Assembly: GCA_021774355.1 (NCBI GenBank)
Contig: JAJFJE010000154.1
Coordinates: 1-28,574 of the forward strand
Direction of reading: 5' to 3'
DNA: 28,574 bases
DNA from: Alphaproteobacteria bacterium
GTDB lineage: Bacteria > Pseudomonadota > Alphaproteobacteria > Zavarziniales > Zavarziniaceae
The notes under the pieces were generated by a model that saw only the letters and a program-made list of their open reading frames with translations, was not told the origin of the DNA and did not search any database. The position numbers and the translations under genes were made by a program. Position 1 is the first letter of the stretch; each line of letters starts with the position of its first letter. This document shows positions 2,763 to 19,250 of the stretch, piece after piece.

Positions 2763-3841
2763 GCGCAGGCTCTCATGCCCCGGTCGGCAAGGGCCGCGGC
2801 GGCGGTGATCGCCGCCAGTCCATAGGCGGCGAAGCTGTCATTGGCCAGGGCGTGCCGGTTATAGGCCAGGATCTCCGCCTCGCTCAGGAAATAGCCGTTA
2901 TTGTCCGAACGGTAGTCGAAACTGTCCTCGACCGGACGGCCCGTCTCGCCCAGCCGGTTATGGCTGTAGTCGAACTCGCGGCCGTAATATTTGATGGTCG
3001 GCTGGATCACGAAATGGTCGTCGAATTCCAGGGTCAAACGGGAATCGTCGACCGGGCACATCACCTCGTGGAGCTTCTCGCCGGGGCGGATACCCACCCC
3101 CTTGCGCGGCAGGTGGGGCGCCATCGCATGGGCCAGGTCGTCGATGCGCACCGACGGGATCTTGGGCACGAAGATCTCGCCGCCATGCATGCGGGCGAAA
3201 TTGCGCAGCACGAAATCGACCCCCTGCTGCAGGGTGATCCAGAACCGGGTCATGCGCACGTCGGTCACCGGCAGGTGATCGCTGCCTTCACGGATCAGGC
3301 GTTCGAAGAACGGCACCACCGAACCGGCCGAGGCCACCACATTGCCGTAGCGGACCACCGAGAACCGGGTGCCGCCGGCGCCCGACAGGTTGTTGGCCGC
3401 GACGAACAGCTTGTCCGAGGCGAGCTTGGAGGCACCGTAAAGATTGACCGGGTTGGCCGCCTTGTCGGTCGACAGGGCGATGACCTGCTTGACCCCCTCC
3501 TCGATGGCGGCGCGGATCAGGTTTTCCGCCCCGTAGATATTGGTCTTCAGGCATTCGAACGGATTATATTCAGCCAGCGGCACATGCTTCATGGCCGCCG
3601 CGTGGATCACATAATCCACCTTGCGCATGGCCATCTTCAGCCGTTCGTAGTCGCGCACGTCGCCGACGAAGAAGCGCAGGCGCGGATCGGGCCGGTCGAG
3701 GCTCAACTGGTAGTGCTTCTGCTCGTCGCGGGAGAAAACGATGACGCTGTGGCAGTCGTAGCGCTTCAGCAATGTATCGACATAGCGGCGCCCGAACGAG
3801 CCGGTACCGCCGGTGATGAGAAGCCTAGCGCCATCGAACAT
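2759..3841 (-). CDS. pseB: UDP-N-acetylglucosamine 4,6-dehydratase (inverting) PseB
   Basis: TGGTGSFG Rossmann motif, LSTDKA and YGASK catalytic motifs, MTRFWITL, GIRPGEKLHEVM; coupled to pseC. Confidence 0.95.
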   Translation of the reverse strand: MFDGARLLITGGTGSFGRRYVDTLLKRYDCHSVIVFSRDEQKHYQLSLDRPDPRLRFFVGDVRDYERLKMAMRKVDYVIHAAAMKHVPLAEYNPFECLKTNIYGAENLIRAAIEEGVKQVIALSTDKAANPVNLYGASKLASDKLFVAANNLSGAGGTRFSVVRYGNVVASAGSVVPFFERLIREGSDHLPVTDVRMTRFWITLQQGVDFVLRNFARMHGGEIFVPKIPSVRIDDLAHAMAPHLPRKGVGIRPGEKLHEVMCPVDDSRLTLEFDDHFVIQPTIKYYGREFDYSHNRLGETGRPVEDSFDYRSDNNGYFLSEAEILAYNRHALANDSFAAYGLAAITAAAALADRGMRACA

Positions 3842-16052: not shown

Positions 16053-17021
16053 ATGTCCGAGAGTCGTCACGCCAAGGTCCTGATCATCGGCTCCGGCCCC
16101 GCCGGCTGCACCGCCGCGATCTAAGCGGCGCGCGCTTGCCTCGACCCGGTGATGGTCCGTGGCCTCCAGCCGGGCGGCCAATTGACCATCACCACCGAGG
16201 TCGAGAACTATCCGGGCTTTGCCACCGCCATCCAGGGACCGTTCCTGATGGAGCAGATGGAGGCCCAGGCGGCCCATGTCGGGACCACCCTGATCGACGA
16301 TATCATCACCGCGGTCGATCTTTCCCGGCGGCCCTTCGTGGCCCGCGGCGATTCCGGCGCGCGCTATGTCGCCGAGACCCTGATCATCGCCACCGGGGCC
16401 AGCGCCAAGTGGCTGGGGCTGCCGTCGGAACAGCGGTTCCAGGGCTTTGGCGTGTCGGCCTGCGCCACCTGCGACGGCTTCTTCTACCGCGGCAAGCAGG
16501 TGGTCGTGGTCGGTGGCGGCAATTCCGCGGTGGAGGAGGCCCTCTATCTGACCAATCACGCGACCAAGGTGACGCTGATCCACCGGCGCGACCATTTGCG
16601 GGCCGACAAGACCAACCAGAACCGCCTGCTGGCCCACCCGAAGATCGCGGTGGAATGGCATGCCGAGATTGCCGAGATCCTGGGCGAAGACGATCCGCCC
16701 GGGGTCACCGGGGTGCGCCTGCGCGATGTCCGGACGGGCCAGACCCGCGACCTCGCCTGCGACGGCGTGTTCGTGGCCATCGGCCACAGCCCGGCGACCG
16801 AATTGTTCAAAGGCCAGTTGCCGATGGACGACAGCGGCTATCTGCTCACCGCGCCGGATTCGACGGCGACCAGCGTCCCCGGGGTGTTCGCCGCCGGGGA
16901 TGTCAAGGACAAGGTCTTTCGCCAGGCAGTGACGGCAGCCGGCATGGGCTGCATGGCGGCCCTGGAGGCGGAACGCTTCCTGGCCGCCCATGCGGACGGC
17001 CAGGCGGAAGCCGCGGAGTAG
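16053..17021 (+). pseudogene. trxB: Thioredoxin-disulfide reductase, interrupted as written by in-frame TAA at codon 24 (may be a sequence error)
   Basis: ATG 16053 reads [31 protein letters not shown] (consensus GSGPAGYTAAIYAARANL); TAA at 16122-16124. Downstream [19 protein letters not shown] and FAAGDV are intact. Confidence 0.9.
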
Positions 17022-17068: not shown

Positions 17069-17962
17069 ATGATGGACTGGGACAAACTGCGTATTTTTCA
17101 CGCTGTCGCCGAGGCCGGCAGCTTTACCCATGCGGGGGACGTGCTGAACCTGTCGCAATCGGCGGTCAGCCGGCAGATCAGTGCCCTCGAGGAAAGCCTG
17201 AAGGTTTCGCTGTTTCACCGCCATGCCCGGGGCCTGATCCTGACCGAACAGGGCGAACTGCTGTTCCGGACCGCCCATGACGTCTTCGCCAAGCTGTCCA
17301 TGGCCGAGGCCATGCTGGCAGACTCCAAGGACAAGCCGCGCGGCCATCTGCGGGTCACCACCACCGTCAGCTTCGGCATGGTCTGGTTGACGCCGCGGAT
17401 TCGCGAGTTCTCCGAGCTTTACCCCGACATTCAGGTCCATCTGATCCTGGACGATGACGAACTCGACCTGGGCATGCGCGAGGCCGATATCGCCATCCGG
17501 TTCCGCGCACCCACCCAAGGCGACCTGATCCAGCGCCGCCTGGTCCAGGTGACGCACCACATCTACAGCTCGCCCGCCTATCTCAAGCGTTACGGGACAC
17601 CGGCAAGCGCCGAAGACCTGGATCATCACGCCCTGCTGATCTATGGGCCGGAGGTGCCGCAGCCCATCTCGACGGTCAATTGGCTGCTCACCAAGGGGGC
17701 AAACCCGGCCAAGCCGCGGACCCCGGTCTTCACCGTCAACAACCTCTACGCCGTGATGCTGGCCGTTGAGTCCGGGTTCGGCGTGGCGTCCCTGCCGGAC
17801 TATCTGGCGCGGGGCAACCCCAAGCTGACCCAGGTCCTGCCCGAGGTTTCGGGCCCCGCCTTCGACACTTATTTCGTCTATCCGGAAGAACTGCGCGACA
17901 CCAAGCGGATCGCCGTGTTCCGCGATTTCATGCTGCGCAAGGTTGCAGAATGGGGCTTCTAG
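17069..17962 (+). CDS. LysR-family regulator, VtlR/LsrB-like
   Basis: MDWDKLRIFHAVAEAGSFTHAG..LNLSQSAVSRQISALE...FHRHARGLILTEQGE. Position directly after trxB and near lrp matches the rhizobial lsrB/vtlR locus. Confidence 0.88.
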   Translation: MMDWDKLRIFHAVAEAGSFTHAGDVLNLSQSAVSRQISALEESLKVSLFHRHARGLILTEQGELLFRTAHDVFAKLSMAEAMLADSKDKPRGHLRVTTTVSFGMVWLTPRIREFSELYPDIQVHLILDDDELDLGMREADIAIRFRAPTQGDLIQRRLVQVTHHIYSSPAYLKRYGTPASAEDLDHHALLIYGPEVPQPISTVNWLLTKGANPAKPRTPVFTVNNLYAVMLAVESGFGVASLPDYLARGNPKLTQVLPEVSGPAFDTYFVYPEELRDTKRIAVFRDFMLRKVAEWGF

Positions 17963-18186
17963 GGGCCGGATCCGGCATCGGATACCCGCTCCGGGGGCGG
18001 CGCCACCGGGGGCGGGGCGCCAGAACCCCGTCCGTTTCGGCGCGGTGCAGCGTAATGCCGCAGCCGCGAGGGCCCGGTTCCGCCCCCCTCAACTGCCCAT
18101 AACCGCTTGTAGTTAATAAAGTATTTCCAGGTTCCCGCATTGCCTATGCAAAGGCCGCAATGCCCGCTTTTGTCAATAGCGATGGT

Positions 18187-18238
18187 GGCAGCGCAGCAAA
18201 CACCCTAATTTACCGCTCAGTGCTGCTGCGTTGCGGCA
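18187..18238. promoter_or_regulatory. Two PhaR/AniA-like boxes
   Basis: GGCAGCGCAGCA (18187-18198) and TGCGTTGCGGCA (18227-18238) each match the recalled PhaR consensus TGCRNYGCASMA at 11/12. Confidence 0.4.
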
Positions 18239-18239
18239 G

Positions 18240-18378
18240 CCCGAACGCCCCCCTACCTCCCCCGGTCGGTGGCGTTCCGGCCGGAAGGATTGCCCCCCAG
18301 TCCGTTTCGGCCACCTTCACGTTTCGGCGTGAAGCCTCCCTGTTGGACTTGCCGGGCCCTCGTGGCCCGGCTTTTTTT
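18240..18378 (+). ncRNA. Putative trans-acting small RNA with two CCUCCC anti-SD motifs (alpha-r8/suhB/MmgR-like 3' end); 5' end uncertain
   Basis: No credible ORF. Stems gaacgcc/ggcgttc around a C-rich loop, agtcc/ggact enclosing a cttcacg-(UUCG)-cgtgaag hairpin; CCTCCC at 18256 and 18335; intrinsic terminator; AT-rich upstream region. Confidence 0.65.
18351..18378 (+). terminator. Rho-independent terminator
   Basis: GCCGGGCC-ctcgt-GGCCCGGC followed by T7. Confidence 0.88.
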
Positions 18379-18389
18379 GCCCGTGCCGG

Positions 18390-19148
18390 CTATTCGCCGT
18401 CGCCCGGCTGCGCCCGGCGTTTTCGGCGGGCGTTGCGCGAGACCATGTTCAGCATCTCGATGCCGGCGGAAAAGGCCATGGCCGCATAGATATAGCCTTT
18501 CGGCACATGGGCGCCGAAGCCTTCGGCAATCAGCGTGGTCCCGATCAGCAGGAGGAAGCCCAGCGCCAGCATGACGATGGTCGGGTTGCGCTGGATGAAA
18601 TTGGCCAGGGGATCGGCCGCCAGCAACATGGCGAGGACCGCCACCACCACGGCGATGACCATGACCGGGATGTGGTCCGTCATGCCGACGGCCGTGATGA
18701 TGCTGTCGATGGAAAATACCAGGTCGAGCACCAGGATCTGCACGATGGCGGCGCCGAAGCCCAGGACCGCGGCACCCGATTGCGCCGCGCCCGGTTCGGG
18801 ATCGGCGTCGACATTGTGATGAATTTCCTTGGTCGCCTTCCACACCAGGAACAGGCCGCCCGCGATCAGGATCAGGTCGCGCCAGGAAAAGCCCTGGCCG
18901 AACACGACGAACAGCGGCGCGGTCAACTGGACGATGAAGGCGACGGTGCTGACCAGGCCCAGGCGCAGGATCAAGGCGAGGCTTATGCCGATGCGGCGGC
19001 CGCGGGTCCGCTGGTCCGGCGGCAGCTTATTGGTCAGGATCGAAATGAAGATCAGATTGTCGATCCCCAGGACGATCTCCATGGCGATCAGGGTGGCAAG
19101 GGCCGCCCAGATCGCGGGGTCCACAGCGAGGCCGATCAGATAGTCCAT
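18390..19148 (-). CDS. TerC-family integral membrane protein
   Basis: [62 protein letters not shown]. Confidence 0.93.
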
Positions 19149-19152
19149 GGAG

Positions 19153-19242
19153 GCTCCGGAAGCAGAGGAAAGGCGGCAAGCCGCCGCTCCTATGTGAGGA
19201 CCGCGGGCCTCGAAACAAGGTGCCGCGAAGCCCTTCCGGAGC
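19153..19242 (-). promoter_or_regulatory. Structured 5' leader of terC occluding the RBS (candidate cis-regulatory RNA)
   Basis: Perfect 10-bp arms GCTCCGGAAG/CTTCCGGAGC (19233-19242 and 19153-19162) enclose three hairpins; the 3' arm contains the GGAG SD. Confidence 0.45.
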
Positions 19243-19250
19243 GTGCCGGG

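Follow-up and report, generated by a model that had tools for sequence, protein, structure and literature searches.

Throughout this report, the window denotes the whole stretch of 28,574 nt of DNA that was analysed. In it, a gene for thioredoxin-disulfide reductase, trxB (16149–17021, + strand; TIGR01292, 345.6 bits against a cut-off of 343.45, and Pyr_redox_2), is followed by a gene for a LysR-type regulator with HTH_1 and LysR_substrate domains (17069–17962, + strand). The true start of trxB may lie upstream of the open reading frame called at 16149. The trxB-lysR order is conserved among relatives and matches the order known for lsrB/vtlR (PMC7486931), and we treat the regulator as the positional ortholog of LsrB/VtlR. 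The preliminary description of this DNA, which had been made from the letters alone, was right on this point when it called the regulator VtlR/LsrB-like and placed a small RNA beside it. The protein is 58% identical to the LysR protein of Pleomorphomonas that precedes a bona fide ar15 RNA.

Convergent with these genes, on the − strand, lies a gene for a terC-family membrane protein (18390–19148; PF03741, 161.8 bits). It is found at the window's own locus only, other genes holding the downstream place in relatives, and it is outside the small RNA unit. The leader of this terC-family gene (19149–19250) stayed below the threshold for the yybP-ykoY Mn riboswitch in a whole-window Rfam scan at curated cut-offs. 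Between the regulator gene and the terC-family gene, at 18218–18378 on the + strand, we place a predicted small RNA of ~161 nt, the 5′ end of which is estimated to within ±3 nt. Most of the 10 genomes of the same family show the order trxB-lysR-small RNA, as do genomes from several further families.

Fold and conservation of the RNA unit

The RNA is composed of four hairpins and a terminator, with three C-rich motifs and a free seed, CCUCCCUGUUGGAC; all of its elements are given here on the + strand. The first hairpin, SL1 (18222–18240), has 8 bp, four of which show compensatory change within the family, and a 5′ hairpin like it is present in distant lineages too. SL2 (18243–18277) carries the first anti-Shine-Dalgarno (anti-SD) motif, CCUCCCCC (18256–18263), in its apical region, and every member of the family retains its C/U-rich loop. 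SL3 (18279–18312) has the loop motif UUGCCCCCCA (18290–18299), which is nearly invariant in the family, and its helix shows 4 compensatory pairs, with 92.5% of the alignment cells paired. SL4 (18315–18334) is an 8-bp hairpin closed by a UUCG loop in the fold, and it is followed by the seed, CCUCCCUGUUGGACUU (18335–18350), which contains the second anti-SD motif and is unpaired in the fold. The unit ends in an intrinsic terminator (18351–18378) with 8 GC pairs (hairpin 18351–18371) and then U7.

The features read from the letters in the preliminary description, namely an AT-rich tract, an inverted repeat, two CCUCCC motifs (CCTCCC at 18256–18261 and 18335–18340 of the DNA), a UUCG hairpin and a strong terminator, are all present in the sequence. 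The length given there, ~140 nt, was too short by our count of ~161 nt from the predicted start. The idea of two seeds holds to the extent that there is more than one C-rich motif, but the third C-rich loop, that of SL3, had been overlooked.

Folding of 18100–18378 gave −114.5 kcal/mol with z = −4.86, and none of 200 dinucleotide shuffles was as good. Covariation across relatives, which had been suggested earlier as a check, was assessed in an alignment of the window with ten same-family genomes (11 in total). In this alignment, conservation starts ~185 nt upstream of the seed, and 91.6% of the cells in the five helices pair, a proportion that drops to 32–46% when the 3′ partners are slid by 1–3 columns. 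Twelve pairs have changed on both sides, a number reached by 0 of 500 shuffles, and these pair counts are to be read with the knowledge that the consensus structure was built from the same alignment. Most of the compensatory changes fall in SL1, SL2 and SL3; SL4 and the terminator are nearly constant within the family. When 55 loci from many lineages were aligned, CCUCCCUG within the seed was invariant or nearly so and was always adjoined by a hairpin. The sequence of this hairpin differs outside the window's family; across lineages it is mostly ACGUCU-CCC-AGACGU, unlike the window stem. The region of the RNA appears not to be coding, because the overlapping open reading frames (18160–18486 on the + strand, 17931–18140 on the − strand and 17943–18113 on the + strand) matched no Pfam family and every frame is interrupted by single-base indels when the family is aligned.

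The hairpin at 18351–18371 is the sole terminator-like site in 17800–18600, and hence the sole terminator after lysR in the window. The whole unit might on this ground be taken for a structured 3′ end only, which terminates or stabilises lysR and perhaps shields terC but has no role in trans. We give this very little credence, since dozens of distant genomes share the 15-nt seed letter for letter and differ in the stems that flank it, and a terminator needs no such seed. The C-rich loops are also conserved, the downstream gene varies between relatives, and a U run follows the hairpin on the + strand only, there being none after it on the − strand. The unit is better read as a small RNA gene, and it is so treated in what follows.

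Family assignment and distribution

At curated cut-offs, the whole window gave a single Rfam match, to SorX (RF02784), at 18310–18377 on the + strand (51.0 bits against a gathering score of 46.6; full model, positions 1–73; E of 8e-10 for the whole window). The match takes in SL4, the seed and the terminator, which amount to only the 3′ third (68 nt) of the ~161-nt RNA. The seed, CCUCCCUGUUGGA, lies unpaired between hairpin and terminator and matches the SorX consensus at every position; the cmscan alignment shows the window seed to be the same as in the consensus of SorX and of SorY alike. The RNA had been called unannotated, and this is true of its greater part, which carries no label, but a standard Rfam scan does label the 3′ 68 nt as SorX.

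SorX had not been among the families proposed earlier, and those that had been, suhB/MmgR and alpha-r15/AbcR, did not fit. In a permissive Rfam scan of 17900–18450, suhB/MmgR (RF00519) scored 18.5 bits against a cut-off of 41, and ar15/AbcR (RF02345, cut-off 40 bits) gave no match at E ≤ 10; both were rejected. As a control, the same search method detected ar15 in another locus, L084, at 44.3 bits. SorY (RF02651) was also rejected, at 29.6 bits against a cut-off of 111, as were several Burkholderia and Xanthomonas sRNA families that lay far under their cut-offs or gave no match. The weak scores of the rejected families arise from the terminator and the seed.

A SorX-like match is present in 10 of 10 same-family genomes, mostly at 40–46 bits, just below the cut-off. 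An even sample of the class, with one genome per family and the window's own included, contained a SorX-like match at E ≤ 0.001 in 47 of 151 genomes. Weaker second SorX-like matches in related genomes (L022, L023, L025 and L027) were without the seed and were dropped. Two further arrangements were noticed. At L123 and L124 of the class sample, a SorX-like RNA stands directly after trxB, with no lysR between them and no operator box (see below) detected. At L049 (Thalassospira australica), two tandem SorX-type RNAs (3039–3119 and 3412–3486) lie downstream of lsrB, each with its own box ~195 nt upstream, an arrangement that recalls the rhizobial abcR1-abcR2 tandem.

Predicted promoter and operator, and linkage to lsrB

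Upstream of the operator region there is an AT-rich tract (~18108–18128, + strand), at the place where relatives have a lysR terminator and the window has none. The inverted repeat pointed out in the preliminary description, GCATTGC (18137–18143), 13 nt and GCAATGC (18157–18163), was considered as the operator and rejected, as its left arm falls in 10 nt absent from all relatives. The conserved box is instead ATGC-N7-GCAa at 18146–18160, ATGCAAAGGCCGCAA, a putative operator for a LysR-type transcriptional regulator (LTTR) that agrees with the class consensus ATGC-N7-GCAT at 7 of 8 positions, overlaps the right arm of the repeat and stands in register in 11 family genomes. The ten bases that the window has in excess of all relatives, CGCATTGCCT (18137–18146), supply one more GCAT half-site and may have arisen when part of the box was duplicated, and the GCATTGC arm may act as an extra half-site.

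Downstream of the operator, a weak −35, ATGGTG (18182–18187, + strand), and a −10, CTAATT (18205–18210, + strand), can be recognised. All members of the family have an ATGCA-N5-TGCA palindrome, then GCAATAGCAATGGTG, then TAAATA, upstream of SL1. For a profile of the promoter across the class, we took loci with a seed and, 100–260 nt upstream of it, a box with one mismatch allowed; these gave 71 distinct fragments, which were stacked ungapped and anchored on the box alone. In box positions, T38 and G40 are conserved and define the weak −35 at positions 37–42, while c59, t61, A62 and T65 define the −10 at positions 60–65. The window follows this class pattern at 7 of 8 palindrome positions and at T38, G40, A62 and T65.

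Past the palindrome, the 71-locus profile reads GCAT-ggc-TG-N3-T at positions 12–24. This is the published VtlR/LsrB box, GCAT-N3-TG-N3-T, which has been confirmed in Brucella abortus and proposed for Agrobacterium tumefaciens (PMC7486931, PMC8844928), and the right half of the window's operator is the counterpart of its GCAT. The window copy, GCAa-N3-cc-N3-T, agrees with the published box at 4 of its 7 specified positions and lies at the right distance from the −10, and a divergent right flank without TG is common to the window's whole genus-level group. In S. meliloti, the box lies at −61 to −49 of PabcR1 (PMC8844928). When the first base of the window's right half-site (GCAA) is likewise set at −61, the predicted start falls at 18218, 8 nt past the −10 and 4 nt before SL1. 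With 24.5 copies of the exact palindrome expected in the genome and 22 present, the motif alone is uninformative and cannot define a regulon by itself.

Alternatively, the RNA gene could be real and have a promoter that depends on a heat-shock-type sigma factor, RpoH, instead of the LysR protein, the palindrome serving another factor or the autoregulation of lsrB. The −10 consensus of the profile, c.tA..T.t, fits the RpoH consensus CCTATAT, and the −35 is at RpoH spacing; the window's own −10 fits RpoH and the alphaproteobacterial sigma-70 −10, CTATAT, equally well (PMC8844928). Moreover, SorY and SorX are RpoHI/HII-dependent (PMC4615379), and S. meliloti AbcR2 is RpoH1-dependent (PMC8844928). 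We nevertheless judge this explanation unlikely, as the class profile is that of an experimentally confirmed VtlR/LsrB box at the PabcR1 position and the −35 is weak. Promoters that depend on an activator typically have a weak −35. Control by RpoH and control by the LysR protein are, besides, not mutually exclusive.

The linkage of box, RNA and regulator was followed in 80 loci of the Rhodospirillales type and the Hyphomicrobiales type, picked by similarity of the LysR protein alone, 78 of which were evaluable. The box is found within ~400 nt after the lysR stop at 54 of the 78 loci, compared with 12 of 78 coding controls of the same size. A SorX-type seed is present at 38 of the 78 and the AbcR-type GUUCCCCUCUGG at 17, and a Pleomorphomonas locus in this set has a bona fide ar15 RNA (44.3 bits). 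Thus, with regulator, operator and position unchanged, the RNA is of the AbcR type in some lineages and of the SorX type in others. When 17 Hyphomicrobiales-type lsrB loci were compared with Rfam, one ar15 match alone was obtained (L084), and the other AbcR-looking RNAs in those loci were missed by both models at E ≤ 0.01.

SorX itself is cut from the 3′ UTR of ompR-1 (RSP_0847) as an RNA of 116 nt, from which a 75-nt form is made via RNase E (PMC9438474, PMC6238624). The 3′ module of the window RNA is SorX by Rfam, and a scan of 17800–18600 found no terminator of lysR's own, that is, none between the lysR stop and the RNA. The window RNA could thus be purely 3′-UTR-derived, transcribed from the trxB-lysR promoter only and cut from the lysR mRNA as SorX is from ompR-1. 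This seems improbable to us, because the box, −35 and −10 stand in fixed register in 71 loci and canonical SorX is found behind ompR without a box. In addition, a lysR terminator lies between the stop codon and the box in relatives (L003, L004, L005 and L011), and six loci (L008, L012, L119, L121, L122 and L125) have box and RNA with no lysR within 1.5 kb. Such terminators and lysR-less copies argue for a separate promoter. As a terminator belonging to lysR alone is absent from the window genome, read-through from trxB-lysR may also reach the U7 of the RNA gene and would probably end there; transcription of both kinds may thus occur side by side.

We regard it as probable that ~18218–18378 (+ strand) is an independently transcribed sRNA gene, activated by LsrB and anti-SD in function. 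The earlier proposal of an anti-SD sRNA longer than usual is favoured by the conserved structure with its compensatory changes and by the LTTR-box promoter in fixed register, both of which are features of sequence. In the mechanism that we propose, the LysR protein would bind the ATGC-N7-GCAa operator, at ~−72 to −58 from the predicted start, and would activate the promoter with its weak −35. An RNA of ~161 nt would then be made, ending at the U7 terminator, and the seed, together with the C-rich loop motifs of SL2 and SL3, would pair with the Shine-Dalgarno regions of targets, so that translation is blocked, as has been demonstrated for AbcR1/2, SorX and SorY. The SorX-like 3′ module may be released by processing.

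The window LysR protein contains zero Cys, and the same is true of 50 of 76 orthologs from other genomes. For A. tumefaciens LsrB, oxidant sensing via C144/C273 has been proposed, and resistance to H2O2 requires C273 (PMC11975290). With no Cys in the window LysR, this thiol redox switch cannot operate here and, judging from the protein sequences, the C144/C273 switch cannot be the general sensing mechanism of LsrB.

Comparable known RNAs, possible targets and significance

SorX of Rhodobacter sphaeroides and the window RNA share a hairpin, the free seed and a terminator, and for the window RNA, as for SorX, anti-SD repression of the Hfq type is expected. The two differ in size and setting: SorX goes from 116 to 75 nt, whereas the window RNA has ~161 nt with three extra hairpins and two further C-rich loops, and it follows lsrB with its own boxed promoter, whereas canonical SorX follows ompR and has no box. 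The top SorX match in the class sample (L116, 91.1 bits) lies ~60 nt after an OmpR-type gene, again without a box, and this context agrees with the published location of SorX.

AbcR1 (alpha-r15) of Sinorhizobium, Agrobacterium and Brucella occupies the same place as the window RNA, downstream of trxB-lsrB/vtlR, and the window's putative operator, which keeps part of the published box, would be of the same kind and at the same distance from the start. In AbcR1-like RNAs, a 5′ hairpin carries one anti-SD motif in its loop, and a second one is located in a single-stranded linker; in the window RNA, CCUCCCCC is placed atop SL2 and CCUCCCUG is unpaired before the terminator, and the third C-rich loop comes in addition. 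The sequences of these motifs differ from AbcR aSD1 and aSD2, the second seed being GCCUCCCUGUUGGAC in the window RNA and UUCCCCUC in AbcR1. The window RNA also has more hairpins than AbcR1, it is present as a single copy and not as a tandem pair, and its regulator lacks Cys, unlike that of the AbcR1 systems. With these differences, the window RNA is most likely the non-rhizobial counterpart of AbcR1.

The module of seed and terminator is the same in SorY (RF02651) and in the window RNA, and SorY has its own promoter; no LysR neighbour of SorY is mentioned in the report on its RpoHI/HII dependence (PMC4615379). The genome that contains L116, which is Rhodobacterales-like, has a second locus, L142 (G096:C40:8700–11900; match 1517–1597, − strand), with scores of 57.1 bits against the SorX model and 55.6 bits against the SorY model. 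This copy lies directly behind a gene for a LysR protein 49% identical to the window's and is preceded by the ATGC-N7-GCAT box; CCATGCAAAAACCGCATAGC is found 76 nt before the match and CCCTAAAT right at the match edge. The presence of L116 and L142 in one genome means that an lsrB-linked RNA and SorX can coexist, the lsrB-linked copy being the SorY-like one, and suggests that the place of AbcR1 is held in Rhodobacter by SorY and not by SorX. MmgR/suhB (alpha-r8, RF00519) has, as the window RNA does, a CCUCCCU-type motif just before the terminator, but its genomic context differs.

By analogy with AbcR1/2, SorX and SorY, the RNA is expected to base-pair with ribosome-binding sites and to repress translation. 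We looked for candidate targets by a crude scan for seed complements at ribosome-binding sites, the results of which are predictions only. The scan found a 13-nt perfect complement of the seed, TCCAACAGGGAGG (G000:C254:4041–4053), over the Shine-Dalgarno site of a gene for a luciferase-like monooxygenase (G000:C254:4054), with ~0.1 such 13-nt matches expected by chance genome-wide. Shorter complements stand before genes for a fatty-acid desaturase, frataxin, an FAD-linked oxidase and a flavin reductase, and transporters were not enriched among the targets predicted by the seed-complement scan. potA is a known target of SorX and takP one of SorY. In a crude RNAduplex comparison, the start region of potA (G000:C347:2506) ranked 1046 of 1750 for the seed, an unremarkable rank that does not support potA as a seed target; for the loop motifs of SL2 and SL3 the same region ranked 98 and 81 of 1750.

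The family of the 3′ module and the LsrB-driven anti-SD sRNAs of Rhizobiales were already known. What had not been described before is the combination of a SorX-type module, extra C-rich hairpins, a boxed promoter and linkage to lsrB outside Rhizobiales, and in the literature searched we found SorX named together neither with AbcR1 nor with LsrB. LsrB/VtlR and AbcR have been studied as a symbiosis and virulence feature of Rhizobiales, and SorX and SorY as oxidative-stress RNAs of Rhodobacter; the locus and its relatives join both, operator, gene order and promoter register being shared by loci whose RNA is of the AbcR type or the SorX type according to lineage. The Rfam SorX model describes only the 3′ third of these RNAs, most of which score just under its cut-off. 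It may be worth re-examining the SorY promoter and the 116-nt pre-SorX, and for many alphaproteobacteria that have not been studied the locus offers a testable prediction of regulation and start site. We also put forward, tentatively and with rather more doubt than confidence, that SorX, SorY, AbcR1 and the window RNA go back to one ancestral anti-SD sRNA gene, activated by LsrB and placed behind trxB-lsrB in early Alphaproteobacteria, SorX being a copy of its 3′ module that was taken up into the 3′ UTR of ompR and the circuit being class-wide with a mostly cysteine-free LsrB. If such common ancestry is true, the LsrB-sRNA circuit would be a property of the class as a whole, and in most of its lineages a cysteine-free LsrB would sense a non-thiol signal.
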